31,809 bases of DNA from a virus. Lineage: Duplodnaviria; Heunggongvirae; Uroviricota; Caudoviricetes; Peduoviridae. The stretch's first letter is position 1. The number at the start of each line of letters is the position of its first letter. The stretch lies in the IMG/VR virus record IMGVR_UViG_2974787780_000001. One strand, 5' to 3'. The notes beneath the pieces were generated by a model that did not search any database, was not told the origin of the DNA, and saw only the letters and a program-made list of their open reading frames with translations. Positions 1 to 31,022 of the stretch are shown here, piece by piece. The position numbers and the translations under genes are program-made.

Positions 1-2283
1 ATGGCCGTTAAAGCCTCCGGGCGTTTTGTCCCTCCGTCAGCATTTGCCGCAGGCACCGGTAAGGCGTTTACCGGTGCTTATGCATGGAACGCGCCACGCG
101 AGGCTGTCGGGCGCGAAAGACCCCTTACACGTGACGAGATGCGTCAGGTGCAAGGTGTTTTATCCACGATTAACCGCCTGCCTTACTTTTTGCGCTCGCT
201 GTTTACTTCACGCTATGACTACATCAGGCGCAATAAAAGCCCGGTGCACGGGTTTTATTTCCTCACATCCACTTTTCAGCGTCGTTTATGGCCGCGCATT
301 GAGCGTGTGAATCAGCGCCATGAAATGAACACCGACGCGTCGTTGCTGTTTCTGGCAGAGCGTGACCACTATGCGCGCCTGCCGGGAATGAATGACAAGG
401 AGCTGAAAAAGTTTGCTGCCCGTATCTCATCGCAGCTTTTCATGATGTATGAGGAACTCTGCGATGCCTGGGTGGATGCGCATGGCGAAAAAGAATCGCT
501 GTTTACGGATGAGGCGCAGGCACATCTGTATGGTCATGTTGCTGGCGCTGCACGTGCTTTCAATATTTCCTCGCTTTACTGGAAAAAATACCGTAAAGGG
601 CAGATGACCACGAGGCAGGCATATTCTGCCATTGCCCGCCTGTTTAACGATGAGTGGTGGATTAGTCAGCTTAAAGGCCAGCGTATGCGCTGGCATGAGG
701 CGTTATTGATTGCTGTCGGGGAGGTCAATAAAGACCGTTCACCTTATGCCAGTAAACATGCCATTCGTGATGTGCGTGCGCGCCGCCAGGCAAATCTGGA
801 ATTTCTTAAATCGTGTGACCTTGAAAACAGGGAAACCGGCGAGCGCATCGACCTTATCAGTAAGGTGATGGGCAGTATTTCTAATCCTGAAATTCGCCGG
901 ATGGAGCTGATGAACACCATTGCCGGTATTGAGCGTTACGCCGCCTCAGAGGGTGATGTGGGGATGTTTATCACGCTTACCGCGCCGTCAAAGTATCACC
1001 CGACACGTCAGGTTGGAAAAGGCGAAAATAAAACCGTCCAGCTTAATCACGGCTGGAATGATGAGGCATTTAATCCAAAGGATGCGCAGCGTTATCTCTG
1101 CCGTATCTGGAGCCTGATGCGCACGGCATTCAAGGATAATGATTTACAGGTCTACGGTTTGCGAGTCGTCGAGCCACACCACGACGGAACGCCGCACTGG
1201 CATATGATGCTTTTTTGTAATCCACGCCAGCGTAACCAGATTATCGAAATCATGCGTCGCTATGCGCTCAAAGAGGATGGCGACGAAAGAGGAGCCGCGC
1301 GAAACCGTTTTCAGGCAAAACACCTTAACCGGGGCGGTGCTGCGGGATATATCGCGAAATACATTTCAAAAAATATCGACGGCTATGCACTGGATGGTCA
1401 GCTCGATAACGATACCGGCAGACCGCTGAAAGATACTGCGGCGGCTGTTACCGCATGGGCGTCAACGTGGCGCATCCCGCAATTTAAAACGGTTGGCCTG
1501 CCGACAATGGGAGCTTACCGTGAGCTACGTAAATTGCCTCGCGGCGTCAGCATTGCTGATGAATTTGACGAACGCGTGGAGGCTGCACGCGCCGCCGCAG
1601 ACAGTGGCGATTTTGCGCTGTATATCAGCGCGCAGGGCGGGGCAAATGTCCCGCGCGATTGTCAGACTGTCAGGGTCGCCCGTAGCCCGTCGGATGACGT
1701 TAACGAATACGAGGAAGAAGTCGAGAGAGTGGTCGGCATTTACGCGCCGCATCTCGGCGCGCGTCATATTCATATCACCAGAACGACGGACTGGCGCATT
1801 GTGCCGAAAGTTCCGGTCGTTGAGCCTTTGACTTTAAAAAGCGGCATCGCCGCGCCTCGGAGTCCTGTCAATAACTGTGGAAAACTCACCGGTGGTGATA
1901 CTTCGTTACCGGCTCCCACACCTTCTGAGCACGCCGCAGCAGTGCTTAATCTGGTTGATGACGGTGTTATCGAATGGAGTGACCCGGAGGTCGTGAGGGC
2001 GCTCAGAGGTGCATTAAAACACGGTCGGAGAACGCCAAGTCGTCAGCAAAGAAACGGAAGCCCGTTAAAACCACATGAAATTGCACCATCGGCCAGACTG
2101 ACCCGGTCGGAAAGAATGCAAATTACCCGTATCCGCGTTGACCTTGCTCAGAACGGTATCAGGCCGCAGCGATGGGAGCTTGAGGCGCTGGCGCGTGGCG
2201 CGACCGTAAATTATGATGGGAAAAAATTCACGTATCCGGTTGTTGATGAGTGGCGGTGGTATATAGTTGATGGTAGGCGGTGA
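1..2283 (+). CDS. A: Replication initiation protein gpA (rolling-circle initiator/nickase)
   Basis: 760-aa ORF beginning at window position 1; N-terminus MAVKASGRFVPPSAF and internal YIAKYISKNIDGY tyrosine motif typical of P2 gpA-type initiators; followed by P2-like synteny. Confidence 0.9.
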   Translation: MAVKASGRFVPPSAFAAGTGKAFTGAYAWNAPREAVGRERPLTRDEMRQVQGVLSTINRLPYFLRSLFTSRYDYIRRNKSPVHGFYFLTSTFQRRLWPRIERVNQRHEMNTDASLLFLAERDHYARLPGMNDKELKKFAARISSQLFMMYEELCDAWVDAHGEKESLFTDEAQAHLYGHVAGAARAFNISSLYWKKYRKGQMTTRQAYSAIARLFNDEWWISQLKGQRMRWHEALLIAVGEVNKDRSPYASKHAIRDVRARRQANLEFLKSCDLENRETGERIDLISKVMGSISNPEIRRMELMNTIAGIERYAASEGDVGMFITLTAPSKYHPTRQVGKGENKTVQLNHGWNDEAFNPKDAQRYLCRIWSLMRTAFKDNDLQVYGLRVVEPHHDGTPHWHMMLFCNPRQRNQIIEIMRRYALKEDGDERGAARNRFQAKHLNRGGAAGYIAKYISKNIDGYALDGQLDNDTGRPLKDTAAAVTAWASTWRIPQFKTVGLPTMGAYRELRKLPRGVSIADEFDERVEAARAAADSGDFALYISAQGGANVPRDCQTVRVARSPSDDVNEYEEEVERVVGIYAPHLGARHIHITRTTDWRIVPKVPVVEPLTLKSGIAAPRSPVNNCGKLTGGDTSLPAPTPSEHAAAVLNLVDDGVIEWSDPEVVRALRGALKHGRRTPSRQQRNGSPLKPHEIAPSARLTRSERMQITRIRVDLAQNGIRPQRWELEALARGATVNYDGKKFTYPVVDEWRWYIVDGRR

Positions 2284-2459
2284 AAAGTTGAAGATGTGAA
2301 CACTGTTATTGGTAGGTAAGTAGATTTGTATGTATAAAGTAGTTGTTGTAGATATGAACAATCAGGCGTAGAATCGCCAGCCGGCTATGATGATTCCAGA
2401 TGATAATGGTTATCATTAGCTGTTGATTTATGATGTTCTTAACCACTAGAGAGACTAAT

Positions 2460-2657
2460 ATGAGCAAAAAGGTTATCACGATACAAGTAAGAGGTGGGCA
2501 CGCAGGTGCTAAGCCTGTTCGTCGTTCAAAACTTGAACAAAGTGTTAATCGTTCCCTGCGTGCTTCGTTTTCTCTGGAAGGTAATCACATTACCAACACT
2601 TCATGGTCTAAAATGTCGCAGGCTGCACGTTTTCTGACCAGAGTAGCTGTTGCTTAA
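2460..2657 (+). CDS. Small basic hypothetical protein (65 aa from ATG 2460; 75 aa if from ATG 2430)
   Basis: ORF track 2430..2657; second ATG at 2460 has purine-rich agagag upstream. Basic composition; lies just downstream of A where P2 carries orf91. Stop codon overlaps the stop of the convergent Fic gene. Confidence 0.4.
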   Translation: MSKKVITIQVRGGHAGAKPVRRSKLEQSVNRSLRASFSLEGNHITNTSWSKMSQAARFLTRVAVA

Positions 2658-3739
2658 AGCTCTTTGATTGCCCTTGAAATAAGGGCAATCAGATTTCTGT
2701 TACTGTCGTGTATTGCGCGTCTTACAGCATAATGGTACGCACGTTTATTTCGCACATCTCCATCTAGCTTTTCCATATCAAATTCATAACCCATAGTAGT
2801 TGCAACAATCTGAAGAAATAATCGTATTGAACGACCATTACCATCTTGAAAGGGGTGGATCCATGCGATTTCTGCATGGAGAGTAGCTAGTTTATGAACT
2901 AACTCTGCTTTAGAATTTATTTTGCTAAGTTCTTTTTTTGTGCAACCTCTAAGACAGGCTTTTAATGATTTTTTGACTTCATTATGTTCCATTGTTGGTC
3001 GCTCTTTATCTCCAACAACAACGGGATGGTTTCTGTATTCACCTGCCCAATCATAAATATGGCCAAAAAGAGCTTTATGGCATTCTAAGATCGTCTTTTC
3101 ATTAATTGTTTTATTTTTGTCGGAGACATAATTTATTATGAGCTGCGTACTTTTGATATATGAAATAACCATTTCGGCAAATTCAACTTGGTATTGGTAT
3201 TTTGCAAATACTAGATTTTTTGTTGCCATGTATTCATATCTTTCATTTTTTCCGTCACGTAAAAGAAAAATGTTGTCTTTTTGGTGCTTTACTTTGATTA
3301 CATGATTGCGTTGAAATGGAAAGTTTTTGTCGTGAGGCAATATGTGAAAATAAGTTTCTTTTTTTAGCTTGTCTACACCAACAATTGAACCAAAAAGAAA
3401 AAGGGCTGCTGTTGTATTAAATAAAACACATACGGAGTCGCCAAGTTGTATCTCTTCGCGACTTAGATCGCATGTTTTTTTCTTATAATTAAATAAATGG
3501 GCGATAGATGGTATGCTGTGATGATTGCGCAATGAACCTGAGCCACATATGACTTCTTTTGTCCTGCTATTCCAGTAATAATTAATGCTTCTCTTATTCT
3601 CTTGTGTTCTTTTTATATGAACCAACTTGAAGCTAAGTAGGCTTAAAGAGAATTCACCATTCTTTTTGACTATATTAACTTTTTGGTGTTTCATTTTGTT
3701 TTTTGTTAGTGTTATTGAAAAATGTTTTGAAGGTATCAT
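2654..3739 (-). CDS. Fic/Doc (Fido) domain protein with ~200-aa N-terminal domain of unknown function; candidate cargo toxin/defence effector
   Basis: 361-aa ORF; C-terminal half contains HPFQDGNGRSIR, matching the Fic active-site consensus HxFx(D/E)GNGRxxR, preceded by the Fic-typical HKALFGHIYDWAGEYR helix. Region is visibly AT-rich versus flanking phage genes. Start codon uncertain (no clear Shine-Dalgarno). Confidence 0.8.
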   Translation of the reverse strand: MIPSKHFSITLTKNKMKHQKVNIVKKNGEFSLSLLSFKLVHIKRTQENKRSINYYWNSRTKEVICGSGSLRNHHSIPSIAHLFNYKKKTCDLSREEIQLGDSVCVLFNTTAALFLFGSIVGVDKLKKETYFHILPHDKNFPFQRNHVIKVKHQKDNIFLLRDGKNERYEYMATKNLVFAKYQYQVEFAEMVISYIKSTQLIINYVSDKNKTINEKTILECHKALFGHIYDWAGEYRNHPVVVGDKERPTMEHNEVKKSLKACLRGCTKKELSKINSKAELVHKLATLHAEIAWIHPFQDGNGRSIRLFLQIVATTMGYEFDMEKLDGDVRNKRAYHYAVRRAIHDSNRNLIALISRAIKEL

Positions 3740-4121
3740 GTTTTGAGTAAGAATGCATGGTTATTATAACATGTTGGAGTTTTATCGCTAAAAAATGGAT
3801 GTAGTGAGAAGTTTGTTGCTCATGACATTTACACTTAAGATGAACAGGAGGTGCTGTTTCGGTAAGATTATCTTTGTCCCATCACATAGCACAGCTCAAT
3901 TTATCACTCATATCTTCATTTCCTTCCAGTGACAACACAAAGCTTTAAAGTCACCTTCTGTGATGCTGCTTTATGTCATTTCATAAGATCAGAGTTATGC
4001 ATGCATTAGGTGCATGGCTTTGCATGTATCAGAATTATACGTTTTCGGCGTCCGACATCACAGCTAGTTTGGATTCAGAGATGTCATGCAACCGCATTAA
4101 AACCTCCACATGAAGCGGGCG

Positions 4122-4140
4122 GGCGAGGCGGGGAAAGCAC
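4122..4140. other. cos: cos site (19-nt cohesive-end sequence, P2 type)
   Basis: Exact string GGCGAGGCGGGGAAAGCAC, which I recall as the P2 19-nt cohesive end; located next to the 3' end of Q as in P2. Confidence 0.7.
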
Positions 4141-4280
4141 TGCGCGCTGGCGGTGGTGCTGATTTTATTTTTTCAGCGTCTGAGCGCGTCGTGATGGCGT
4201 TTAGATTGTGCGCCGGGGGTTGGTGTGTCTGCGGGCTGTTTTGTGCGGTGGTGAGTGTGTGAGGGCGTGATGACGGGCTG

Positions 4281-4303
4281 TAAAAAAGCCGCCCGCAGGC
4301 GGC
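4281..4303 (-). terminator. Rho-independent terminator downstream of Q
   Basis: On the minus strand: GCCGCC-TGCG-GGCGGC hairpin followed by T6, directly after the Q stop codon. Confidence 0.5.
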
Positions 4304-4308
4304 GATGT

Positions 4309-5343
4309 TCAGCCGTTGTCAGTGTCCAGTGAGTAGTTTTTAAAGCGGATGACCTCCTGACCGAGCCAGCCGTTTATCTCGCGGATCCTGTCCTGTAACG
4401 GGATAAGCTCATTGCGGACAAAGACCTTTGCCACTTTCTCAATATCACCCAGCGACCCGACGTTCTCCGGCTTGCCGCCCATCAACTGAAAGGGGATGCG
4501 GTGCGCGTCCAGCAGGTCTGCGGCACTGGCTTTTTTGATATTAAAAAAATCGTCCTTCGTCGCCACTTCACTGAGCGGGATAATTTTAATGCCGTCGGCT
4601 TTTCCCTGTGGGGCATAGAGAAACAGGTTTTTAAAGTTGTTGCGGCCTTTTGACTTGACCATGTTTTCGCGGAGCATTTCGATATCGTTGCGATCCTGCA
4701 CGGCATCGGTGACGTACATGATGTATCCGGCATGAGCGCCGTTTTCGTAATACTTGCGGCGGAACAGCGTGGCTGATTCATTCAGCCAGGCAGAGTTAAG
4801 GGCGCTGAGATATTCCGGCAGACCGTACAGCTCCTGATTAATATCCGGCTCCAGCAGGTGAAACACGGAGCCGGGCGCGAAAGGTGTCGGCTCATGGAAG
4901 GACGGCACCCACCAGTAAACATCCTCTTCCACGCCACGGCGGGTATATTTTGCCGGTGAGGTTTCCAGTCTGATGACCTTACCGGTGGTGCTGTAACGCT
5001 TTTCCAGAAACGCATTACCGAACACCAGAAAATCCAGCACAAAGCGGCTGAAATCCTGCTGGGAAAGCCACGGATGCGGGATAAATGTCGAGGCCAGAAT
5101 ATTGCGTTTGACGTAAATCGGTGAGCTGTGATGCACGGCAGCACGCAGGCTTTTTGCCAGACCGGTAAAGCTGACCGGTGGCTCATACCATCTGCCGTTA
5201 CTGATGCACTCGACGTAATCCAGAATGTCACGGCGGTCGAGTACCGGCACCGGCTCACCAAAGGTGAATGCCTCCATTTTCGGGGCGCTGGCGGTCATTT
5301 TTTTTGCCGCAGGTTGCGGTGTTTTCCCTTTTTTCTTGCTCAT
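4309..5343 (-). CDS. Q: Portal protein gpQ
   Basis: 344-aa ORF, same length as P2 gpQ; adjacent to cos and upstream gene P on same strand; start overlaps P stop by 1 nt. Confidence 0.92.
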   Translation of the reverse strand: MSKKKGKTPQPAAKKMTASAPKMEAFTFGEPVPVLDRRDILDYVECISNGRWYEPPVSFTGLAKSLRAAVHHSSPIYVKRNILASTFIPHPWLSQQDFSRFVLDFLVFGNAFLEKRYSTTGKVIRLETSPAKYTRRGVEEDVYWWVPSFHEPTPFAPGSVFHLLEPDINQELYGLPEYLSALNSAWLNESATLFRRKYYENGAHAGYIMYVTDAVQDRNDIEMLRENMVKSKGRNNFKNLFLYAPQGKADGIKIIPLSEVATKDDFFNIKKASAADLLDAHRIPFQLMGGKPENVGSLGDIEKVAKVFVRNELIPLQDRIREINGWLGQEVIRFKNYSLDTDNG

Positions 5344-7115
5344 CAGTAAAACTCCAGAATGGTGGATGTCAGCGGGGTGCTGATACCGGCGGTGAGTGGC
5401 TCATTTAACAGGGCGTGCATGGTCGCCCAGGCGAGGTCGGCATGGCTGGCTTCCTCGCTGCGGCTGGCCTCATAGGTGGCGCTGCGCCCGCTGCTGGTCA
5501 TGGTCTTGCGGATAGCCATAAACGAGCTGGTGATGTCGGTGGCGCTGACGTCATATTCCAGACAGCCACGGCGGATAACGTCTTTTGCCTTGAGCACCAT
5601 TGCGGTTTTCATTTCCGGCGTGTAGCGGATATCACGCGCGGCGGGATAGAACGAGCGCACGAGCTGGAACACGCCGACACCGAGGCCGGTGGCATCAATA
5701 CCGATGTATTCGACGTTGTATTTTTCGGTGAGTTTGCGGATGGATTCCGCCTGAGTGGCAAAGTCCATGCCTTTCCACTGGTGACGCTCAAGTATTCTGA
5801 ATTTGCCACCGGCCACCACCGGCGGTGCCAGCACCACGCATCCGGCGCTGTCGCCACGGTGTGACGGGTCGTAACCAATCCATACCGGACGTGAGCCGAA
5901 CGGATTGGCGGCAAACGGCGCATAGTCTTCCCATTCTTCCAGCGTGTCGACCATGCAGCGTTGCAGCTCCTCGAACGGGAACACCGACGCCTTGTCGTCA
6001 ACAAATTCACACATGAACAGGTTTTTAAAATCGTCGGTGCTGTTTTCGCGTTTAAGCTGCTCAATGTCGAACAGCGTGCAGCCACCTTTCAGGGCATCCT
6101 CAATGGTGACAATCTGCCGCCACTGGCCGTCCGCACAGAGAAGACCTCCGGCAAGGGCGTTATGTCTGACGTCGATTTCCACGCGTTCGGCGGCGCTGGC
6201 GCGTCCCCGGTTAAACAGTTCACCCGACCAGAACGGGTAGGCGTCGTGCGCCAGCGTGGACGGGGTGGAGAAATAGGTCGAGCGCAGGTGACTCTGTGAG
6301 GCCATACCTGATGCCACCTTACGCAGTACCTGAAAATTCGGGATCCAGAAAATCTCGTCGACGTACAGGTCACCGTTATGGCTCTGTGCGGTGTTGGAGT
6401 TGGTGCCGAGAAAAATCAGTTTTGCGCCGTTATTGCCCAGGACAATCGGGTCACCGGTCAGGTCAACGTCAACCAGCCGGGCAAAGGCGATGATGTATTC
6501 GCGGAACACATACGCCTGCGTTTTACTGGCCGACAGAAAAATCTGGTTATGACCGGTTTTCAGGGCGCGCAGCAGCGCCTCGCGGGAAAAATAAAACGTC
6601 GCGCCAATCTGGCGGGATTTCAGGATATCGCGGATGCGGTGCTCAAGCCCGGCGCGATACCAGTGCAACTGATATTCGAAAGACTGCTCAAAGAAAATCT
6701 GCTCCAGCTTTTCGATGGCCTCGTCACTGAAAAAATTCTTTTTCGGTTTGCGACGCCCGCCTTTGTTGCGGTTAGCGACGTTCGGATTAAGGTCTGCCTC
6801 GTTGCCGGTCTGACTGTAGCGGTTGACCCGTGCCAGTCGTTCAATCTGGCGTCCCAGCAGGTCAATTTCCTTGAAGTCACCACCGGTTTTCTGCGGTTTG
6901 ATGATGAGCTGGGTCAGCCGCGCTTCCAGACTCATTTCGACACGGCTGATGGGGGCAACGCTGTCCCAGCCGTCGCGCTGTTTCCAGCTCTGCACCGTCG
7001 GGCGTTTCATCTGCAACATGGCGGCAATCTGCGGCACGGAAAACCCCTGCCAGTACAGCAGCGCCGCCTGACGACGCGGGTCGTGTAAAAGAGTGGTGTC
7101 TGTGGTGATGGTCAT
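5343..7115 (-). CDS. P: Terminase large subunit (ATPase) gpP
   Basis: ORF track gives 5343..7145 from a TTG; ATG at 7115 has GGCGAGG Shine-Dalgarno and gives 590 aa (P2 gpP length); starts MTITTDTTLLHDPRR. Confidence 0.9.
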   Translation of the reverse strand: MTITTDTTLLHDPRRQAALLYWQGFSVPQIAAMLQMKRPTVQSWKQRDGWDSVAPISRVEMSLEARLTQLIIKPQKTGGDFKEIDLLGRQIERLARVNRYSQTGNEADLNPNVANRNKGGRRKPKKNFFSDEAIEKLEQIFFEQSFEYQLHWYRAGLEHRIRDILKSRQIGATFYFSREALLRALKTGHNQIFLSASKTQAYVFREYIIAFARLVDVDLTGDPIVLGNNGAKLIFLGTNSNTAQSHNGDLYVDEIFWIPNFQVLRKVASGMASQSHLRSTYFSTPSTLAHDAYPFWSGELFNRGRASAAERVEIDVRHNALAGGLLCADGQWRQIVTIEDALKGGCTLFDIEQLKRENSTDDFKNLFMCEFVDDKASVFPFEELQRCMVDTLEEWEDYAPFAANPFGSRPVWIGYDPSHRGDSAGCVVLAPPVVAGGKFRILERHQWKGMDFATQAESIRKLTEKYNVEYIGIDATGLGVGVFQLVRSFYPAARDIRYTPEMKTAMVLKAKDVIRRGCLEYDVSATDITSSFMAIRKTMTSSGRSATYEASRSEEASHADLAWATMHALLNEPLTAGISTPLTSTILEFY

Positions 7116-15974: not shown

Positions 15975-18710
15975 ATGAGCACGAAATTTAAAACCGTTAT
16001 CACTACTGCCGGAGCCGCGAAGCTGGCAGCCGCCACTGTTCCCGGCGGGAAAAAAGTAAACCTGTCTGCAATGGCTGTGGGTGACGGTAATGGCCAATTG
16101 CCGGTGCCGGATGCCGGTCAGACGAAACTGGTGCATGAAGTCTGGCGTCATGCCCTGAATAAAGTCAGTGTGGATAACAAGAATAAAAACTATATCGTGG
16201 CTGAACTGGTTGTTCCGCCAGAAGTGGGCGGCTTCTGGATGCGTGAGCTTGGTCTGTATGACGATGCCGGAACACTGATTGCGGTATCCAACATGGCAGA
16301 AAGCTATAAGCCAGAACTGGCTGAAGGCTCCGGACGTGCGCAGACCTGCCGCATGGTTATTATTCTCAGCAACGTGGCGTCCGTTGAGCTGAGTATTGAT
16401 GCCAGCACAGTGATGGCGACGCAGGATTACGTCGATGACAAAATCGCAGAGCATGAGCAGTCCCGCCGCCATCCTGACGCCACGCTGACAGAAAAAGGTT
16501 TTACTCAGTTAAGCAGTGCAACAAACAGCACCAGTGAAAAGCAGGCTGCAACGCCAAAGGCAGTAAAAGCAGCCTATGACAATGCTGAGAAACGTCTGCA
16601 GAAAGACCAGAACGGTGGCGATATTCCAGATAAGGACGCTTTTCTGGACAATGTTGGCGTTACCAGCCTGACGTTTATGAAAAACAATGGCGAAATGCCG
16701 CTTGATGCTGATCTGAATACATTTGGTCCCGTTAAGGCTTATCTGGGAATCTGGTCTAAAGCTACCTCAACTAACGCAACACTGGAGAAAAATTTCCCGG
16801 AAGATAATGCTGTCGGTGTGCTTGAGGTTTTTGCTGCCGGCAATTTTGCAGGTACGCAACGCTTCACCACGAGAGACGGCAATGTATACATACGCAGACT
16901 CGCCAATAAGTGGAATGGCTCTGATGGTCCGTGGGGCATATGGCGTCACACTCAATCAGCTACCCGCCCTTTGAGTACGACTATAGACCTGAATACGCTT
17001 GGAGCCGCCGAACATCTTGGTTTATGGCGTAACAGTAGCTCGGCTATAGCTTCATATGAACGCAATTATCCAGAGGAAGGCGGCTTTGCTCAGGGGATGC
17101 TTGAGATCCTCGAAGGCGGAAATTATGGAAGAACGCAACGTTATACCACTCGCCGTGGAAATATGTACGTCCGCTGCCTTGCGGCAAGCTGGGATGCATC
17201 AAATCCGCAGTGGGAACCGTGGTTAAGAGTCGGTCATCAGTCAGAGAGTCGTTATTACGAAGGTGATTTAAATGTTCTAACCGACCCCGGTATTTACAGT
17301 GTTACAGGAAAGGCAACAAACGGTCCGATGCTGGACACCGTTGGCGCGACACTACTTGGGATACTGGAAGTAATCAGACGTTTTGATGGTGTGTCTGTCT
17401 GGCAGCGTTACACAACCACAGGGAAATCAGAAACCACACAGGGACGCACTTTTGAGCGCGTCTACGCCGGGAGCAAATGGACCGAATGGCGAGAAGTATA
17501 TAACTCCTTTTCGTTGCCTCTGAATCTGGGCATCGGTGGCGCAGTGGCAAAACTATCCATTCTGGACTGGCAGACCTACGATTTTGTGCCGGGCAGTCTG
17601 ATAACCGTTCGGCTTGATAATATGACCAACATTCCCGACGGTATGGACTGGGGCGTCATTGATGGCAACCTGATAAACATCGCAGTTGGTCCGAGTGATG
17701 ATTCCGGTACGGGGCGCTCAATGCATGTATGGCGCAGCACTGTAAGTAAAGCCAACTACCGCTTTTTTATGGTGCGCATTTCAGGAAATCCGGGAAGCCG
17801 CACGATCACAACAAGACGAGTACCAATCATTGACGAAGCCCAGACATGGGGCGCGAAACAGACATTCAGTGCTGGCCTTTCTGGTGAACTGTCCGGCAAT
17901 GCGGCGACAGCAACAAAGCTGAAAACAGCCCGTAAAATTAATAACGTTTCGTTTGATGGAACATCAGATATTAACCTGACGCCGAAAAATATTGGTGCAT
18001 TTGCTTCAGGAAAAACAGGAGACACCGTTGCGAATGATAAAGCCGTTGGATGGAACTGGAGTAGCGGAGCCTATAACGCAACTATTGGTGGGGCATCAAC
18101 GTTAATTCTTCATTTTAATATCGGTGAAGGAAGTTGTCCCGCCGCCCAGTTTCGCGTTAATTATAAGAACGGTGGTATTTTTTATCGTTCTGCTCGTGAC
18201 GGTTACGGATTCGAGGCTGACTGGTCTGAGTTTTATACCACAACGCGAAAACCTACAGCGGGAGATGTCGGTGCACTGCCGTTATCTGGTGGTCAATTGA
18301 ATGGTGCTCTGGGTATAGGAACATCCAGTGCTCTTGGCGGTAATTCGATTGTTTTGGGTGATAATGACACGGGCTTTAAACAAAATGGTGATGGTAATCT
18401 GGATGTTTATGCTAATAGCGTCCATGTTATGCGCTTTGTCTCCGGAAGCGTTCAAAGTAATAAAACCATAAATATTACGGGGCGTGTTAATCCCTCGGAT
18501 TACGGTAACTTTGATTCCCGCTATGTGAGAGATGTCAGACTTGGCACACGTGTTGTCCAGACCATGCAGAAAGGGGTGATGTATGAGAAAGCAGGGCACG
18601 TAATTACCGGGCTTGGTATTGTCGGTGAAGTCGATGGTGATGACCCCGCAGTATTCAGACCAATACAAAAATACATCAATGGCACATGGTATAACGTCGC
18701 ACAGGTGTAA
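15975..18710 (+). CDS. H: Tail fibre protein gpH (enlarged, with three tandem ~93-aa internal domain repeats)
   Basis: 911-aa ORF; conserved P2-H-like N-terminus (MSTKFKTVITTAGAAKLAAATVPGGKK); central tandem repeats sharing DLNT..G..L/Y....QR(F/Y)TT..G..Y..W; divergent C-terminal receptor-binding portion. P2 gpH is 669 aa as I recall. Confidence 0.9.
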   Translation: MSTKFKTVITTAGAAKLAAATVPGGKKVNLSAMAVGDGNGQLPVPDAGQTKLVHEVWRHALNKVSVDNKNKNYIVAELVVPPEVGGFWMRELGLYDDAGTLIAVSNMAESYKPELAEGSGRAQTCRMVIILSNVASVELSIDASTVMATQDYVDDKIAEHEQSRRHPDATLTEKGFTQLSSATNSTSEKQAATPKAVKAAYDNAEKRLQKDQNGGDIPDKDAFLDNVGVTSLTFMKNNGEMPLDADLNTFGPVKAYLGIWSKATSTNATLEKNFPEDNAVGVLEVFAAGNFAGTQRFTTRDGNVYIRRLANKWNGSDGPWGIWRHTQSATRPLSTTIDLNTLGAAEHLGLWRNSSSAIASYERNYPEEGGFAQGMLEILEGGNYGRTQRYTTRRGNMYVRCLAASWDASNPQWEPWLRVGHQSESRYYEGDLNVLTDPGIYSVTGKATNGPMLDTVGATLLGILEVIRRFDGVSVWQRYTTTGKSETTQGRTFERVYAGSKWTEWREVYNSFSLPLNLGIGGAVAKLSILDWQTYDFVPGSLITVRLDNMTNIPDGMDWGVIDGNLINIAVGPSDDSGTGRSMHVWRSTVSKANYRFFMVRISGNPGSRTITTRRVPIIDEAQTWGAKQTFSAGLSGELSGNAATATKLKTARKINNVSFDGTSDINLTPKNIGAFASGKTGDTVANDKAVGWNWSSGAYNATIGGASTLILHFNIGEGSCPAAQFRVNYKNGGIFYRSARDGYGFEADWSEFYTTTRKPTAGDVGALPLSGGQLNGALGIGTSSALGGNSIVLGDNDTGFKQNGDGNLDVYANSVHVMRFVSGSVQSNKTINITGRVNPSDYGNFDSRYVRDVRLGTRVVQTMQKGVMYEKAGHVITGLGIVGEVDGDDPAVFRPIQKYINGTWYNVAQV

Positions 18711-23061: not shown

Positions 23062-25501
23062 CAATGTAAAATTACAGGTATTGCTCAGGGCTGTTGACCA
23101 GGCATCCCGCCCGTTTAAATCCATCCGTACAGCGAGCAAATCGCTGTCGGGGGATATCCGGGAAACACAAAAATCACTGCGCGAGCTGAACGGTCACGCA
23201 TCCCGTATTGAGGGATTCCGCAAGACCAGTGCACAGCTCGCCGTGACTGGTCATGCACTTGAAAAGGCACGGCAGGAAGCCGAAGCCCTTGCCACACAGT
23301 TTAAAAACACCGAACGTCCGACCCGTGCTCAGGCGAAAGTGCTGGAATCCGCAAAGCGTGCGGCAGAGGACTTACAGGCGAAATATAACCGCCTGACGGA
23401 TTCCGTTAAACGCCAGCAACGGGAACTGGCCGTTGTGGGAATTAATACCCGCAATCTTGCACATGATGAGCAGGGACTGAAAAACCGTATCAGTGAAACC
23501 ACCGCACAACTTAACCGTCAGCGTGACGCGCTGGCGCGTGTCAGTGCGCAACAGGCAAAACTTAACGCAGTAAAACAGCGTTATCAGGCCGGAAAGGAAC
23601 TGGCCGGAAATATGGCCTCGGTAGGCGCTGCCGGTGTGGGGATTGCGGCGGCGGGAACGATGGCCGGAGTTAAGCTGCTGATGCCCGGTTATGAGTTTGC
23701 GCAGAAAAACTCAGAATTGCAGGCCGTGCTAGGAGTGGCAAAAGACTCCGCCGAAATGGCCGCGCTACGCAAACAGGCGCGCCAGCTCGGCGACAACACA
23801 GCCGCCTCGGCGGATGATGCAGCAGCAGCTCAAATCATCGTGGCTAAATCAGGAGCGGATAAAAATGGCATCTTGGCACAAACACCGGCCATTTTGAATA
23901 TGTCACTGGCAAACAAGAAAACGATGGAGGAAAACGCCACTTTACTTATTGGGACAAAATCGGCATTCGGGCTTGCTGATGATAAGGCTTCCCATATTGC
24001 TGATGTTATTTCAATGACGATGAATAAATCGCAAGCCACATTCGAGGGACTAAGTGATTCACTTACCTATGTCGGGCCAGTGGCAAAAGATGCAGGTGTC
24101 AGCTTGGAAGAAACAGCAGCAATGTTAGGTGCATTACACGATGCAAATATCAGTGGGTCTATGGCTGGCACAGGAAGTCGAGCAGTACTGAGTCGTTTGC
24201 AGGCACCAACCGGGAAAGCGTATGACGCTATTAAAGAGCTTGGCGTAAAGACAACTGACAGCAAAGGTAATACGCGACCTGTCTTTTCAATTCTGAAAGA
24301 AATTCAGCGGAGTTTTGAAAAAAATAAACTAGGAACAGGGCAGCGCGCTGAATACATGAAAACAATATTCGGCGAAGAGGCCAGCTCATCAGCAAGTGTA
24401 TTAATGACAGCAGCAGCCAGCGGCAAGCTGGATAATCTGACCAGGTTGATTAAAGAATCTGACGGTAAAACAGAAGAACTGGTTAAGGTTATGCAGGACA
24501 ACCTCGGCGGTGACTTTAAGGAGTTTCAGTCCGCTTATGAGGCGGTGGGGACTGACCTGTTTGACCAGCAGGAAGGCGCACTGCGTAAGCTCACGCAGAC
24601 GGCCACAAAGTATGTGTTAAAACTCGACGGCTGGATCCAGAAAAACAAATCACTGGCGTCAACCATCGGCATCATTGCCGGTGGCGCGCTGGCGCTGACT
24701 GGCATCATCGGTGCCATTGGTCTTGTCGCCTGGCCGGTTATCACCGGCATCAATGCCATCATCGCGGCAGCAGGCGCAATGGGGGCAATCTTCACGACGG
24801 TTGGCAGTGCCGTTATGACGGCCATCGGGGCGATTAGCTGGCCGGTTGTGGCCGTGGTGGCCGCCATTGTCGCCGGGGCGTTGCTTATCCGTAAATACTG
24901 GGAGCCTGTCAGCGCATTCTTTGGCGGTGTGGTTGAAGGGCTGAAAGCGGCATTTGCGCCGGTGGGGGAACTGTTCACGCCACTTAAACCGGTTTTTGAC
25001 TGGCTGGGGGAAAAGTTACAGGCCGCGTGGCAGTGGTTTAAAAATCTGATTGCCCCGGTCAAAGCCACCCAGGACACCCTGAACCGTTGCCGTGACACGG
25101 GCGTCATGTTCGGGCAGGCACTGGCTGACGCGCTGATGCTGCCGCTTAATGCGTTCAACAAACTGCGCAGTGGTATTGACTGGGTACTGGAAAAACTCGG
25201 TGTTATCAACAAAGAGTCAGACACACTTGACCAGACCGCCGCAAGGACTAATGCCGCCACGTATGGCACCGGTGGTTATATTCCGGCGACCAGCTCTTAT
25301 GCAGGCTATCAGGCTTATCAGCCGGTTACGGCACCGGCTGGCCGCTCTTATGTGGACCAGAGTAAAAACGAATATCACATCAACCTGACGGGTGGTACTG
25401 CGCCGGGGACACAGCTTGACCGCCAGTTACAGGATGCGCTCGAAAAATACGAGCGGGATAAACGTGCGCGCGCCCGTGCCAGCATGATGCATGACGGTTA
25501 A
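23054..25501 (+). CDS. T: Tail tape measure protein gpT
   Basis: 815-aa ORF with coiled-coil N-terminal region and Gly/Ala-rich hydrophobic segment; P2 gpT length. Confidence 0.92.
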   Translation: MSNNVKLQVLLRAVDQASRPFKSIRTASKSLSGDIRETQKSLRELNGHASRIEGFRKTSAQLAVTGHALEKARQEAEALATQFKNTERPTRAQAKVLESAKRAAEDLQAKYNRLTDSVKRQQRELAVVGINTRNLAHDEQGLKNRISETTAQLNRQRDALARVSAQQAKLNAVKQRYQAGKELAGNMASVGAAGVGIAAAGTMAGVKLLMPGYEFAQKNSELQAVLGVAKDSAEMAALRKQARQLGDNTAASADDAAAAQIIVAKSGADKNGILAQTPAILNMSLANKKTMEENATLLIGTKSAFGLADDKASHIADVISMTMNKSQATFEGLSDSLTYVGPVAKDAGVSLEETAAMLGALHDANISGSMAGTGSRAVLSRLQAPTGKAYDAIKELGVKTTDSKGNTRPVFSILKEIQRSFEKNKLGTGQRAEYMKTIFGEEASSSASVLMTAAASGKLDNLTRLIKESDGKTEELVKVMQDNLGGDFKEFQSAYEAVGTDLFDQQEGALRKLTQTATKYVLKLDGWIQKNKSLASTIGIIAGGALALTGIIGAIGLVAWPVITGINAIIAAAGAMGAIFTTVGSAVMTAIGAISWPVVAVVAAIVAGALLIRKYWEPVSAFFGGVVEGLKAAFAPVGELFTPLKPVFDWLGEKLQAAWQWFKNLIAPVKATQDTLNRCRDTGVMFGQALADALMLPLNAFNKLRSGIDWVLEKLGVINKESDTLDQTAARTNAATYGTGGYIPATSSYAGYQAYQPVTAPAGRSYVDQSKNEYHINLTGGTAPGTQLDRQLQDALEKYERDKRARARASMMHDG

Positions 25502-25515
25502 GGAGGTGACGAAAA

Positions 25516-25995
25516 ATGATGCTCGCGTTAGGTATGTTTGTTTTTATGCGCCAGACGCTGCCACACCAGACCATGCAGCGTGAATCAGATTATCGCTGGC
25601 CGTCAAATTCCCGTATCGGTAAACGGGATGCCTTTCAGTTTCTCGGTGTTGGCGAGGAAAACATCACGCTTGCCGGTGTGCTTTATCCCGAACTGACCGG
25701 CGGCAAGCTGACGATGACCACGCTCAGACTGATGGCAGAGGAAGGCCGGGCGTGGCCGTTGCTGGATGGCACCGGCATGATTTACGGTATGTATGTCATC
25801 AGCAAGGTGAGTGAAACAGGGAGTATTTTCTTTGCAGACGGCACACCCCGAAAAATTGATTTTACGCTGTCGCTCACCCGCGTTGATGAATCACTGGCCG
25901 CGCTTTATGGCGATATCGGTAAACAGGCGGAGTCGCTCATCGGTAAGGCCGGCAGTCTGGCGACCAGATTCACAGGTATGATGGGGGCGGGATAA
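25516..25995 (+). CDS. U: Tail protein gpU
   Basis: 159-aa ORF, P2 gpU length/position. Confidence 0.9.
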   Translation: MMLALGMFVFMRQTLPHQTMQRESDYRWPSNSRIGKRDAFQFLGVGEENITLAGVLYPELTGGKLTMTTLRLMAEEGRAWPLLDGTGMIYGMYVISKVSETGSIFFADGTPRKIDFTLSLTRVDESLAALYGDIGKQAESLIGKAGSLATRFTGMMGAG

Positions 25996-27158
25996 TGCTG
26001 GATGCGCTGACATTTGATGCAGGCAGTACGCTGACGCCGGATTACATGCTGATGCTCGACAGCAGGGATATTACCGGCAATATCAGCGACCGTCTGATGA
26101 GCATGACTCTGACGGATAACCGGGGCTTTGAAGCTGACCAGCTTGATATTGAACTGAACGATGCCGACGGGCAGGTCGGGCTGCCGGTTCGTGGCGCTGT
26201 CCTGACGGTGTATATCGGCTGGAAAGGTTTTGCCCTGGTATGCAAAGGGAAATTCACCGTTGATGAGGTTGAACACCGGGGCGCGCCGGATGTGGTCACC
26301 ATCCGCGCCCGGAGTGCAGATTTCCGCGGGACGCTCAATTCCCGCCGGGAAGGCTCCTGGCATGACACCACGCTCGGTGCGATTGTTGAGGCGATAGCCT
26401 CCCGTAACAGGCTGGAAGCCAGTGTCGCTCCGTCACTGGCCGGAATTAAAATCCCGCACATCGACCAGTCGCAGGAGTCTGATGCGAAATTCCTGACCCG
26501 TCTTGCAGAACGCAACGGCGGTGAGGTGTCGGTAAAAATGGGAAAACTGTTGTTTCTCAAAGCGGGGCAGGGGGTGACGGCCAGCGGTAAAAAAATCCCG
26601 CAGGTCACCATCACCCGCAGCGACGGCGACCGCCATCATTTTGCGATTGCTGACCGTGGAGCCTATACCGGCGTAACGGCAAAGTGGTTACACACCAAAG
26701 ACCCGAAGCCGCAAAAGCAGAAGGTAAAACTGAAACGCAAAAAGAAAGAAAAACACCTGCGCGCACTGGAGCACCCGAAAGCAAAACCGGTCAGGCAGAA
26801 GAAAGCGCCAAAAGTACCGGAAGCGCGCGAAGGTGAATACATGGCCGGTGAGGCTGACAACGTTTTTGCCCTGACCACGGTATATGCCACGAAAGCACAG
26901 GCCATGCGTGCCGCTCAGGCGAAGTGGGATAAACTGCAACGGGGCGTTGCGGAGTTCTCCATCAGCCTGGCTACCGGTCGTGCTGATATTTACACGGAAA
27001 CACCGGTTAAAGTATCAGGCTTTAAGCGCGTCATAGACGAGCAGGACTGGACAATCACTAAGGTGACACATTTTCTGAATAATAGCGGCTTCACGACGTC
27101 CTTAGAGCTTGAGGTCAGGCTTTCTGATGTGGAGTACGAAACAGAAGATGATGAGTGA
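25995..27158 (+). CDS. D: Tail protein gpD (late control gene D)
   Basis: 387-aa ORF, P2 gpD length; internal Lys-rich linker. Confidence 0.9.
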   Translation: MLDALTFDAGSTLTPDYMLMLDSRDITGNISDRLMSMTLTDNRGFEADQLDIELNDADGQVGLPVRGAVLTVYIGWKGFALVCKGKFTVDEVEHRGAPDVVTIRARSADFRGTLNSRREGSWHDTTLGAIVEAIASRNRLEASVAPSLAGIKIPHIDQSQESDAKFLTRLAERNGGEVSVKMGKLLFLKAGQGVTASGKKIPQVTITRSDGDRHHFAIADRGAYTGVTAKWLHTKDPKPQKQKVKLKRKKKEKHLRALEHPKAKPVRQKKAPKVPEAREGEYMAGEADNVFALTTVYATKAQAMRAAQAKWDKLQRGVAEFSISLATGRADIYTETPVKVSGFKRVIDEQDWTITKVTHFLNNSGFTTSLELEVRLSDVEYETEDDE

Positions 27159-27239
27159 TGTAATTTATTTATCTGTTTGTTTTATAAGGATAAATTAACT
27201 AAAATGGCACCATCAACAAAACCGGAAGAGGTGCTCGCG

Positions 27240-27458
27240 ATGTTTCATTGTCCTTTATGCCAGCATGCCGCACATGCGCGTACAAGCCGCTATATCACTG
27301 ACACGACAAAAGAGCGTTATCACCAGTGTCAGAACGTGAATTGCAGCGCCACATTCATCACTTATGAGTCGGTACAGCGATACATCGTGAAGCCGGGAGA
27401 AGTCCACGCCGTAAGACCGCACCCGTTGCCGTCAGGGCAGCAAATTATGTGGATGTGA
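27240..27458 (+). CDS. ogr: Late gene activator Ogr (zinc-finger)
   Basis: ORF track 27177..27458; ATG at 27240 gives 72 aa MFHCPLCQHAAHARTSRYITDTTKERYHQCQNVNCSATF with a C-x2-C...C-x4-C zinc-binding pattern; P2 Ogr length. Confidence 0.9.
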   Translation: MFHCPLCQHAAHARTSRYITDTTKERYHQCQNVNCSATFITYESVQRYIVKPGEVHAVRPHPLPSGQQIMWM

Positions 27459-27468
27459 TCACAAAAAT

Positions 27469-27495
27469 AGCCCCTCAGTCGAGGGGCTTATTTAT
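27469..27495 (+). terminator. Rho-independent terminator after ogr
   Basis: AGCCCCTC-AGTC-GAGGGGCT hairpin followed by T-rich TATTTAT. Confidence 0.65.
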
Positions 27496-27500
27496 GGTCG

Positions 27501-27520
27501 ATGTGGACGCTATGTGGACA
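27501..27520 (+). repeat. Direct repeat pair ATGTGGAC (11-bp period); candidate integrase arm-type sites
   Basis: TGTGGACG at 27502-27509 and TGTGGACA at 27513-27520. Confidence 0.5.
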
Positions 27521-27575
27521 GTGGTTGACATAAATCCATTTATATCATCAGGTTAGGTGCTTTTTTGTGACACCA

Positions 27576-27602
27576 TCCCTGTCTTCCCCCACATGATGTG
27601 GG
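27576..27602 (+). terminator. Hairpin plus T8 (terminator-like) inside attP-like region
   Basis: CCCCCACAT-G-ATGTGGGGG followed by TTTTTTTT. Confidence 0.55.
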
Positions 27603-27697
27603 GGTTTTTTTTATCAATCACTTACATTGGTTCCCTTAAGAAAACAGCAACTTAAGAAAACCTATAAGGGACTGGAAGGGCTACAAAGTTCTTCGAG

Positions 27698-27716
27698 TGT
27701 GGACACAATGTGGACA
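27698..27716 (+). repeat. Second direct repeat pair TGTGGACA (11-bp period); candidate integrase arm-type sites
   Basis: TGTGGACA at 27698-27705 and 27709-27716, same orientation as the 27502-27520 pair. Confidence 0.5.
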
Positions 27717-27736
27717 CTCGGCAAGGATCTGATGCT

Positions 27737-28141
27737 TCAGTCGAGCAGGTCGATTTCCTTGATTTTTTGTACTGCACTAACCAATTCGTCAGGAGTGTAG
27801 TTAGTCGCATCAAGCTCTTTTACTTTTCCATCATCAAAAACAACGCGTAGCTTTTTGCCTCGTTGTAGATATGCACCAAAGACCCCAGCGACAGCGCCGA
27901 ATGCTGCAGTAGCAAATGGAAGAACTATGTTTAAGTATTCGGTTGTGCCGGCACCAAAACATATTGGCCCTCGTTGATATGCTATGGCAGCAGTGTCAAG
28001 CTCTTTGGCTAAACCAGCAATATTGCGTCCACTGGCCCTGCAATGGATTTTTCTTATGGAACTATTTGTCATCTCTTCAAAAATTCCTCTGTGTAAACGC
28101 ATTAAACTGGTCATCTCACTTTTTAAAGGTGTTATGACCAT
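27737..28141 (-). CDS. Hypothetical single-pass membrane protein (cargo gene between attP-like region and int)
   Basis: 134-aa ORF co-oriented with int and C; hydrophobic Gly/Ala-rich segment LNIVLPFATAAFGAVAGVFGAYL; AT-rich; start codon ambiguous (candidate ATGs at Met1, Met10, Met14, Met24 of the track ORF). Confidence 0.45.
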   Translation of the reverse strand: MVITPLKSEMTSLMRLHRGIFEEMTNSSIRKIHCRASGRNIAGLAKELDTAAIAYQRGPICFGAGTTEYLNIVLPFATAAFGAVAGVFGAYLQRGKKLRVVFDDGKVKELDATNYTPDELVSAVQKIKEIDLLD

Positions 28142-28292
28142 CCTCTGTGGTTACAACTGGTCGCTTAAGTTCATACCTGCCGAGAAAGCACAGGTTGATG
28201 GATTAAGCTTTGACGTCTATCAGGACGATGTTACATCGCAAGATGTGCTTATCGTCCTAGTTGATAATAAACGAACTATGTTGCCTGAATAA

Positions 28293-29306
28293 TTATCGAA
28301 TCGTTAAACCACCCTTTAGTGGGTTTAACGCTACTGCGTTTTGCAGGTAATCAGGCGCAAGGTGCGCATAGGCCATCGTCTGCTGAATGCTCGCATGCCC
28401 CAGAATCTGTTGCAGTGCAATTATGTTGCCCCCATTCATCATGAAATGACTTGCGAATGTATGTCGCAGGATATGGGTTGCCTGATTGGGTGGTATATCA
28501 GGTTTCACTCTGCGTAAAATCCCGCAAAACTTCTCATAATCAACTTTGAATAATTTGGCACTGGCCTCCTCTTTAACTTTTTTCTCCAGTTCCTTAGAAA
28601 TCGGCACGGTTCGCTTTTTACCGTTTTTGGTTTTCAGGAAGGTAACCCTGCAATTTGTAATCTGTGCTGGTTTTAGCGTGGCAACTTCCGTCCATCTTCC
28701 TCCAGTGCTCAGACATAAAAGCGCGACAAGTAAGTCATCACCAGCCAAAACATTTAACAGTTTTTCGATTTCTGCTTTTTCCAGGAACGTCATTTCAGGG
28801 TTGGCCTCCGTCAGTGGCGGCAGTCCGTGAATTGGGTGTTGCCCGGAAAATTCATCCAGTTGAATTAATTTTGTGAACATGCCGGATAATCGGTATATGT
28901 CACGATTTATCGTTGCAGCACTGATGCCATCACGTAGTCGCATGGAGCGATAATCCATCAAAGCCCTTTTGTTCATCCGGCTCACAGGTATATCACCTAT
29001 ACCGCTGATGGTTTTGAGCAGATGATTAAACTCTTTTGTCCCATGCTCGTGGTTTTGCCCGTGATATTTCCACCAGATGTCGAGCAATTCTGTCAAAGTT
29101 CGGCGGTCTGCTCGCTGGCCTGCCCATTCTTTCTGACTGGCATTGGCGATTGTGTATCGCTCAAATGCTACAGCCTCAGCTTTTCTTTCAAACTTCCTGC
29201 GGATGCGTTTTCCGTCGCGACCGCGAGGTCTAATGTCCACTTCATAGCGTCCATCATCGAGCTTCTTAATTGACATAAGAAAGCCCTCTGACGCTGTATT
29301 CACCAT
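28293..29306 (-). CDS. int: Tyrosine integrase
   Basis: 337-aa ORF (P2 Int length) with C-terminal catalytic region HILRHTFASH...GHASIQQTMAYAHL (H-x-x-R and Tyr nucleophile). Confidence 0.92.
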   Translation of the reverse strand: MVNTASEGFLMSIKKLDDGRYEVDIRPRGRDGKRIRRKFERKAEAVAFERYTIANASQKEWAGQRADRRTLTELLDIWWKYHGQNHEHGTKEFNHLLKTISGIGDIPVSRMNKRALMDYRSMRLRDGISAATINRDIYRLSGMFTKLIQLDEFSGQHPIHGLPPLTEANPEMTFLEKAEIEKLLNVLAGDDLLVALLCLSTGGRWTEVATLKPAQITNCRVTFLKTKNGKKRTVPISKELEKKVKEEASAKLFKVDYEKFCGILRRVKPDIPPNQATHILRHTFASHFMMNGGNIIALQQILGHASIQQTMAYAHLAPDYLQNAVALNPLKGGLTIR

Positions 29307-29345
29307 CTTGGTAACAAATGGTGAAAATGTAATGTTTATAGAGTG

Positions 29346-29639
29346 TTAACCAGTCTGTTTCCCGGAGTGGTCTGATTCTGTTGGTTTTTGCCCAATGTGT
29401 GCGAGAGCCGGCGCGATCTGACCAGCTTGTGGTGACGTATCACCAGTCATTAACCAGAGCGTATATTTTTTAAATAAAGGTGTATTTGTGACTCGCATCA
29501 CGATGCTGAGACCTGGGTCTTTATGCCCACTTTCGTAATTTTTGACTGTTCCTAGAGCTATCCCGCTAATTTCGCTGAATTTAGCCTGTGTTAAGCCTTC
29601 TGCTTTCCTAATCGCTTTCAGTTTTTCGAATGTCTGCAT
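29346..29639 (-). CDS. C: Immunity repressor C (helix-turn-helix)
   Basis: 97-aa ORF upstream of int on same strand; HTH LTQAKFSEISGIALGTVKNYESG; C-terminal ...KYTLWLMTG...GQIAPALAHIGQ resembles my recollection of P2 C. Confidence 0.85.
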   Translation of the reverse strand: MQTFEKLKAIRKAEGLTQAKFSEISGIALGTVKNYESGHKDPGLSIVMRVTNTPLFKKYTLWLMTGDTSPQAGQIAPALAHIGQKPTESDHSGKQTG

Positions 29640-29791
29640 TTGACAGTAACCTATTGGTGACTTATATTTCCGTCAAAAGGTTGTGAATTGGTGACCTTTT
29701 GAGTGTGTTAGCCAGTCCCTAGAAAGGACAGGGGCGACCTAGAAGGGACTGGATCTAATAAGGGTAACACGAAAGCAAAAAGGGCTAATCA
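29640..29791. promoter_or_regulatory. Immunity switch region (divergent Pc/Pe promoters with operator-like repeats)
   Basis: Direct repeats ATTGGTGAC at 29653-29661 and 29687-29695 flanking a TATATT element; inverted repeat CCAGTCCCT (29712-29720) / AGGGACTGG (29744-29752). Confidence 0.5.
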
Positions 29792-30064
29792 ATGGAAGTC
29801 AATGACTATGTGATTCAGTACCCTATTGATGCGGTACATACGGTTAAGTTTGCAGAGTTACTTGGTAAGCCAGAAACGGCTGTAGTCAAGATGGTAAAAG
29901 AGAATAAATTGCCAGTTATTGAGCTTCGTGATCCAAGTAAGCCGAACGCTCGTGTCGGTGAGAAGTGGGTTTTCATTCCTGAGTTTAATCGCGCTGTACG
30001 TGAGGCGTTTTATAACCGACCGGTTGAACAGCGTGATGCATGGCTTTTGTGGATGGGGTTGTGA
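29792..30064 (+). CDS. cox: Cox-like excisionase/transcriptional regulator
   Basis: 90-aa ORF, first gene of rightward early operon divergent from C; Cox-like size; motif KLPVIELRDP resembles P2 Cox as I recall it. Confidence 0.8.
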   Translation: MEVNDYVIQYPIDAVHTVKFAELLGKPETAVVKMVKENKLPVIELRDPSKPNARVGEKWVFIPEFNRAVREAFYNRPVEQRDAWLLWMGL

Positions 30065-30066
30065 TT

Positions 30067-30237
30067 ATGAATGAGCCGCGTTGTATTGCTCAGTTACTGC
30101 GTAACGAAAGCCCCAGGGCGATTGACTTCACCATCACCCACGGGAAGGGTCGCAAGGGAATCATTATCCGCACCAAAAAACAGAGTCCGTTAAAAAAGGC
30201 TCTGACCTTTCTGAAAAGCCGGAGGGTCTGGAAATGA
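30067..30237 (+). CDS. Small early protein (P2 orf78-position)
   Basis: ORF track 30040..30237; ATG at 30067 follows cox stop with GGGG purine tract upstream; 56 aa, basic. Confidence 0.5.
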   Translation: MNEPRCIAQLLRNESPRAIDFTITHGKGRKGIIIRTKKQSPLKKALTFLKSRRVWK

Positions 30238-30734: not shown

Positions 30735-30797
30735 ATAATTAACCAGAGTTTTTAACGCACTTAATTGTGCGGGGCTTCTTTTTGCCTGGAGAAAGTC

Positions 30798-31022
30798 ATG
30801 CATACAGTTTCTGAAAATCAGTGCGGTAAATACGCATTACTGCTGCAACAGGCCAGAACCGAAGCACAGGCCGACGCAGCGACGCGCTTCTCTTCTCATC
30901 TTGACGCCATGATTCGCCACATCACAAAGGCGGAGTTATCCCGCGTGGAGATAGTCGAGCTGCTCAGTCAGGAGTCGGAAAAATTTCACAATATCGGATT
31001 ATCTCGCGGGGAGGTGCTTTGA
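30798..31022 (+). CDS. Early hypothetical protein (P2 orf80-position)
   Basis: ORF track 30765..31022; ATG at 30798 preceded by GGAGAAAGTC (good Shine-Dalgarno); 74 aa. Confidence 0.6.

Follow-up and report, generated by a model that had tools for sequence, protein, structure and literature searches.

The window, i.e. the whole stretch of 31,809 nucleotides that was analysed, is very probably the entire genome, in one copy, of a temperate phage of the P2 type (Peduovirus), namely the one deposited as VB-YPM-18, 476A and 476B, with its circular map opened at the first base of replication gene A. An earlier reading of the sequence alone had already described it as a circular permutation and not as an integrated prophage, and this was borne out, as the window was, bar two bases, an exact rotation of a circular record, its attP was intact, and the junction of an orf83-like gene with A was continuous when the end of the window was joined to its start. 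The same reading had taken the arrangement to imply a circular or replicative genome, a concatemer or a tandem double lysogen as the source molecule. None of these is needed for a window of exactly one genome unit with no terminal overlap, for which three complete-genome records exist that are opened at different points.

Deposited records of the genome

A megablast comparison of the window with annotated phage records led to three records with exactly its length of 31,809 bp and approximately 100% identity. VB-YPM-18, 476A and 476B were deposited as complete phage genomes with Yersinia pestis as the listed host, their gene content is that of the window, and they are opened as follows:

ON146440.1, Yersinia phage VB-YPM-18, 31,809 bp, circular, opens at window position 29934
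OR545058.1, vB_YpM_476A, 31,809 bp, circular, opens at window position 4122
OR545059.1, vB_YpM_476B, 31,809 bp, circular, opens at window position 4141

The window was an exact rotation of ON146440.1 with two mismatches (positions 6165 and 29933), window base 1 corresponding to record base 1877. Differences to 476B were found at the same two positions, and differences to 476A at 6165 plus 29933/29934; none of the three deposited records was matched exactly (two to three base differences each). From the rotation of ON146440.1 and the near-identity to 476A and 476B, the window therefore represents a fourth near-identical copy of one phage. Position 6165, inside terminase gene P, is T in the window and A in all three deposited records. 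At position 29933 the window carries C and all three records carry A, with 476A differing at 29934 as well, and window base 29933 corresponds to the last base of ON146440.1. The difference at 29933 may be a true polymorphism, or it may be a circularisation or end artefact of one assembly.

The ATG of A is the opening point in none of the three 31,809-bp records. It is used in vB_YpM_50 (MT374858.1), a sibling of the vB_YpM series for which Y. pestis is likewise the listed host, and in which window base 1 equals record base 1. A terminal overlap, suggested earlier as a point to check, was not found when the start and end of the window were compared for direct overlaps of 10–500 nt, and the window is exactly one genome unit long. 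No paper describing the VB-YPM-18, 476A or 476B isolates was found in a literature search by isolate name.

Cohesive-end site

A P2-type 19-nt cohesive end had been proposed in the middle of the window, between a Fic-domain gene and Q, and its identity to cosL and cosR of P2, its uniqueness and its conserved flanks all support this assignment. The following elements were assigned:

4122..4140, plus strand, cos cohesive-end sequence of 19 nt, GGCGAGGCGGGGAAAGCAC, identical to the annotated cosL/cosR of P2
4094..4147, plus strand, core cos block common to P2 and P4, comprising GCATTAAAACC..AAGCGGGCG, the 19-mer and (T/C)GCGCGC, from an alignment with the circularised P2 ends and from reading the P4 ends
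4141..4308, plus strand, cos-to-Q spacer including the tQ terminator region, conserved with P2

GGCGAGGCGGGGAAAGCAC was identical at 19 of 19 positions to P2 (NC_001895) 1–19 (cosL) and 33575–33593 (cosR), and the left end of satellite P4 is the same 19-mer (19/19). With up to three mismatches allowed on both strands it gave a single match in the window, the chance expectation being 0.01 as judged from dinucleotide-preserving shuffles. When the two P2 ends were joined and set against window 3841..4440, conservation was observed for the 19-mer, for approximately 28 nt to its left and for everything rightward up to gene Q, with a spacer from cos to the stop of Q of 168 nt in the window vs. 167 nt in P2. 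The likeness fades farther to the left of cos, where P2 has the old promoter region and the window has other cargo. The flanking genes of the 19-mer are the Fic-domain gene (2654..3739, minus strand) and portal gene Q (4309..5343, minus strand); its position is thus just downstream of Q and adjoins the A-to-Q cargo hotspot described for P2-like phages (PMC9122126). The cognate P2-type terminase (gpP and gpM) is encoded by the same genome. For P2 and P4, a core cos signal in common is stated in a passage of the same article that cites Ziermann & Calendar 1990 (PMC9122126).

By analogy to P2, nicks are predicted at 4121/4122 on the top strand and at 4140/4141 on the bottom strand, which would leave a 5′ overhang. 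Window position 4122 corresponds to base 1 in at least 20 related phage records (query window 4040..4310, query position 83), among them P2, Wphi, L-413C, fiAA91-ss, HQ103 and R18C, and fiAA91-ss carries a cosL annotation there. The record of vB_YpM_476A has the 19-mer from base 1 and window position 4121 as its last base, and that of vB_YpM_476B starts with window position 4141 and ends with the 19-mer (window position 4140). As one opens at 4122 and the other at 4141, the two records bracket both predicted nick positions. Such a layout would be expected if a linear, end-repaired cos genome had been assembled with a terminal repeat of 19 bp that was removed from one of the ends, a different one in each record.

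Gene content and order relative to P2

In a tblastn search of 42 P2 proteins against the window, to whose end its first 3 kb had been appended, each essential P2 gene gave one match and the matches followed the P2 order, most of them with 91–100% amino acid identity. The order is Q P; O N M L X Y K lysABC R S; V W J I H G; FI FII E T U D ogr; int C; cox orf78 B orf80-83 A. The only P2 genes for which tblastn found no counterpart in the window were orf30, fun(Z), orf91, tin and old, all of them non-essential. Genes referred to in this work are:

1..2283, plus strand, replication gene A, Pfam Phage_GPA (E=1e-122), 97.3% identity to P2 A, with its ATG at window base 1
4309..5343, minus strand, portal gene Q, 98.8% amino acid identity to P2 Q
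5343..7115, minus strand, terminase large subunit gene P, 99.5% amino acid identity to P2 P over 590 aa
9275..10018, plus strand, terminase small/endonuclease subunit gene M, 97.2% amino acid identity to P2 M
27240..27458, plus strand, late-gene activator gene ogr, 100% amino acid identity to P2 Ogr, Pfam Ogr_Delta
31545..31809, plus strand, orf83-like (DUF5405) gene, interrupted by the end of the window and completed by the 11 nt of window 1..11

The reading from sequence alone had the window start at the ATG of A and end within the orf83-like gene, which agrees with the extent of A and with an orf83 homologue that is continuous across the join. Over this join of window end and start the P2 orf83 protein aligned with 91 of 91 residues at 98.9% identity (31545..31809 followed by 1..8, with the stop at 9..11), and the 11-nt overlap of orf83 and A known from P2 was reproduced across it. 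The window end and start are indeed contiguous, a point that had been raised for checking, in ON146440.1, OR545058.1 and OR545059.1, all of which continue through the join with an intact orf83-like CDS annotated; in ON146440.1 this CDS is uninterrupted at 1612..1887. Opening the map at the A ATG truncates the orf83-like (DUF5405) gene 11 nt short of its stop.

The tail-fibre gene H (15975..18710, plus strand) encodes 911 aa compared to 669 aa in P2, and its product matches P2 H over the N-terminal 204 residues only, with 84% identity. The receptor-binding part of H has been exchanged, and a relation of this exchange to plating on Yersinia pestis may be possible.

Attachment site and integrase

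Between ogr and int a complete phage attachment site was detected, with no host DNA in between:

27497..27524, plus strand, attP P arm with two direct ATGTGGAC Int arm-type repeats, aligning with the annotated P2 P arm and identical in Wphi
27569..27615, plus strand, attP core of 47 bp, GACACCATCCCTGTCTTCCCCCACATGATGTGGGGGTTTTTTTTATC, identical in Wphi
27697..27719, plus strand, attP P′ arm with two direct TGTGGACA repeats, aligning with the P′ arm of P2 and with Wphi
28293..29276, minus strand, int, a Wphi-type tyrosine integrase with 98% amino acid identity to Wphi Int over its full length and 51% to P2 Int, Pfam Int_N and Phage_integrase

Read from the ogr side, the order is ogr terminator hairpin, P-arm repeats, an IHF-like A/T segment, core region and P′-arm repeats. 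The repeats correspond to the arm repeat consensus of P2-type integrases, tgTGGaCa / TGTGGACA (PMC3448106). P arm, core and P′ arm are contiguous, and ogr and int lie on one stretch. The P2 attP core (AAAAAATAAGCCCGTGTAAGGGAGATT) is absent from the window. As a single core is flanked by both arms, the window is in the excised (attP) configuration, and neither host DNA at the window ends nor a duplication as attL/attR was found.

The integrated form could be deduced from bacterial genomes. Window 27569..29306 was present in eleven E. coli chromosomes with 99.7–100% identity, the match breaking off inside attP. In E. coli JNU a relative sits between fieF and cpxP, with ogr adjoining fieF, int adjoining cpxP and cos internal, and the core is duplicated approximately 31.5 kb apart with the host genes outside. 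The 47-bp core is common to attP, to the int-side and ogr-side junctions of JNU and to attB of K-12 (one mismatch in K-12), where it lies in the interval from cpxP to fieF, at the 3′ end of the cpxP/cpxQ region, and comprises a terminator-like hairpin followed by a T run. A Wphi1 prophage at cpxP-fieF has been reported for E. coli W (PMC3032704). As the core includes the hairpin at the host 3′ end, integration swaps the 3′ end of cpxP/cpxQ for a phage-borne copy.

The hairpin and T run of the cpxP/cpxQ end are carried by the 47-bp core in the window (27569..27615) and at two further loci (L005, about 1331..1400; L127, 2331..2377). Phage core and K-12 sequence differ in one loop base, A for C, and the junction of E. 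coli 600029 shows a compensatory change in the stem, CCCCCTCATGATGAGGGGG instead of CCCCCACATGATGTGGGGG. No Rfam matches were obtained for the whole window at the gathering threshold; of the cpxQ region it contains 47 bp, too few to give a score.

The last ~45 nt of int (28293..28338) were strongly diverged from Wphi at the DNA level, with nearly the same C-terminus of the protein (AVALNPLKGGLTIR vs. AVALNPLKGGVTL). A replacement of the last ~15 int codons was considered and rejected, as protein comparison revealed a conserved Int C-terminus and largely synonymous divergence.

Cargo genes

Contrary to the earlier statement that only an attP-like region separates ogr and int, approximately 565 bp with two constrained small genes are found there in addition:

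27737..28292, both strands, divergent pair of small cargo genes between the P′ arm and int
27737..28072, minus strand, small gene 1, 111 aa (134 aa if started at 28141), with a hydrophobic segment
28056..28292, plus strand, small gene 2, 78 aa
Other copies of the segment: L004 34539..35094; L127 2497..3052; L128–L132 about 5775..6333

The 5′ ends of the two genes overlap by 17 nt. From the P′ arm to the stop of int the distance is ~565 bp in the window vs. ~10 nt in Wphi, and both genes are absent from Wphi and P2. Comparison with a copy of 81% DNA identity in E. coli 600029 led to substitutions by codon position of 20/10/57 for 27737..28072 and 5/5/18 for 28056..28292, with zero indels and zero stops. 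From this distribution and the lack of indels and stops, both small ORFs behave as coding sequences. The segment was present in 12 of 5,426 E. coli genomes, every time beside int at cpxP, and the same gene pair, with 70–72% amino acid identity, was flanked by cpxP and an int of the P2 type in prophages of Serratia and Rahnella. No family match for either small protein was found in Pfam, PHROGs, PADLOC or NCBIfam. The interval from int to att has been described as a minor hotspot for cargo and defence genes in P2-like prophages and accounts for 3% of their defence systems (PMC13586616). The DNA divergence of the last ~45 nt of int from Wphi suggests that the cargo segment was acquired along with the end of int (3′) from a diverged allele. 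For a 375-aa gene, searches in Pfam, PHROGs, PADLOC and NCBIfam, a PDB profile search, relaxed Pfam scans of 36 family members and BFVD Foldseek gave no matches.

Where P2 has old/tin, in the hotspot between A and cos, the window carries a Fic gene:

2654..3739, minus strand, Fic-domain cargo gene, 361 aa, Pfam Fic (E=6.6e-17)

The Fic protein matched the PADLOC candidate system PDC-S04 with 2.8e-33 and SoFic-like models with 1.8e-13. Within 2430..3739 an ORF of 65–75 aa (phrog_9918, unknown function) was additionally observed, which is convergent with the Fic gene and overlaps its 3′ end by 4 nt.

Origin of the permuted layout

The same phage has been deposited opened at several points, two of them being the cos edges, and a sibling is opened at the A ATG; the permutation is therefore most simply explained by conventions of assembly and deposition, applied to a virion genome that is linear with cos ends. 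The virion DNA would be linear with 19-nt cohesive ends, cut by the P/M terminase at 4122..4140. After injection the ends would anneal and the molecule would circularise, by which ogr-attP-int and orf83-A would become contiguous. Genomes of this kind are commonly drawn as circles by assemblers or depositors, who choose a start, which here would have been the A ATG. Int would then act on the 47-bp attP core and its identical counterpart at the cpxP/cpxQ 3′ end, and recombination would yield a prophage flanked by cpxP and fieF, its termini formed by int and ogr and its cos internal, as in the E. coli relatives.

One may ask whether the circle itself was the source. That the circular form is a biologically relevant persistent state in the isolation host seems unlikely; if Y. 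pestis lacks a cpxP-type attB, this state would be a cos-joined episome as reported for HQ103, and such an episome might then have been sequenced. That the window derives from a real circular, non-integrated molecule is regarded as very unlikely; this could be a circle in replication or, in Y. pestis, where such an attB may be missing, an episome of the carrier-state/pseudolysogenic kind. P2 infection always passes through a cos-joined circle, which was counted in favour of this source. A precedent is the P2-like sibling HQ103 from the same Y. pestis strain, which is reported to exist in EV76 as an independent circle unable to integrate (PMC10321612), and for L-413C, which carries the Wphi core, a matching attB was not found in sequenced Yersinia (PMC3448106). 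The 47-bp core itself occurs in many Enterobacteriaceae genera, with single matches in Serratia, Erwinia, Pantoea and Edwardsiella, among others, and no Yersinia appeared among the matches listed (at least 120 species-representative loci holding the core), which is suggestive only. However, the identical records were deposited as complete phage genomes and not as bacterial assemblies, 476A and 476B open exactly at the cos edges as linear virion DNA would give, and assembled DNA of a cos phage yields a circular map whatever the source molecule.

The arrangement A...cos...ogr-attP-int...orf83 would also result if the window spanned the junction of two tandem prophage copies in a double lysogen, where attP is regenerated between the copies, or of two units of a replication or packaging concatemer, which holds an uncut cos. 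Either origin is extremely unlikely for a window of exactly one unit whose ends show no repeat, which contains no host junction and whose length of 31,809 bp is found identically in three independent complete-genome records. Furthermore, rolling-circle replication of P2 leads to monomeric circles as packaging substrate, which was counted against such an origin. Next to impossible is a simple integrated prophage with the 19-mer as a chance or vestigial match, for which the presence of int and of attP-like repeats could be put forward and nothing further. Host sequence flanking both ends, which according to the sequence-only reading would have spoken against a permutation, was not seen, both ends falling within phage genes that form a single ORF when joined; P arm, core and P′ arm follow each other without interruption, in contrast to the core copies ~31.5 kb apart in E. 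coli JNU; and the chance expectation for the 19-mer is 0.01 even with three mismatches allowed. A simple integrated prophage was thus ruled out by the comparison with the JNU and K-12 junctions together with the continuity of orf83 across the join.

Implications

Under the preferred reading of a linear virion genome drawn as a circle, an internal cos site and an intact attP are ordinary and due to the layout of the record, and established knowledge of P2-like phages is unchanged. Public records and papers already contain the cos sequence, the order of the genes, the Wphi-type att at cpxP-fieF, the cargo hotspots and the genome itself. A scan that takes the window as chromosomal DNA would misread the internal cos and the intact attP as unusual. 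As the orf83-like gene overlaps A and is cut when the map is opened at the A ATG, it can be lost or truncated in annotation. The physical ends of the virion DNA are to be taken as 4122/4140, as predicted from P2, and the natural integration target of the phage is the cpxP/cpxQ terminator of E. coli-like hosts and not an obvious Yersinia site.

Comparison with known phages

With P2 (NC_001895 / AF063097) the window shares the 19-nt cos with its conserved flanks, the essential genes in order with 91–100% amino acid identity and the 11-nt orf83/A overlap. The P2 record, however, is linear and opened at cos, whereas the window is a circular layout opened at A. Further differences to P2 are the low identities of Int (51%), C (47%) and Cox (43%), the missing P2 attP core, a likeness of H that is restricted to the first 204 aa, and the cargo, as old, tin, orf91, fun(Z) and orf30 are missing from the window, which has other cargo instead. 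Closer to Wphi (AY135739) are the attP arms and 47-bp core, which are identical or nearly so, Int with 98% identity and the region 25001..31809 with ~97% DNA identity; Wphi is without the two small genes between attP and int, and its cos-proximal and Z/fun cargo differ from those of the window. P4 (NC_001609) is an unrelated genome that has the cos signal alone in common with the window, i.e. the 19-mer, the flanks GCATTAAAACC..AAGCGGGCG and GCGCGC and a GGTGCATGGCTTTGCATG motif ~95 nt to the left, and it shares this signal because it uses the P2 terminase (PMC9122126). Among the P2-like phages that plate on Y. pestis, HQ103 is, according to its description, an element that stays in a carrier state in EV76 and does not integrate (PMC10321612). 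The records of HQ103 and L-413C both start at the cos position of the window, and L-413C also has a core of the Wphi type (PMC3448106).
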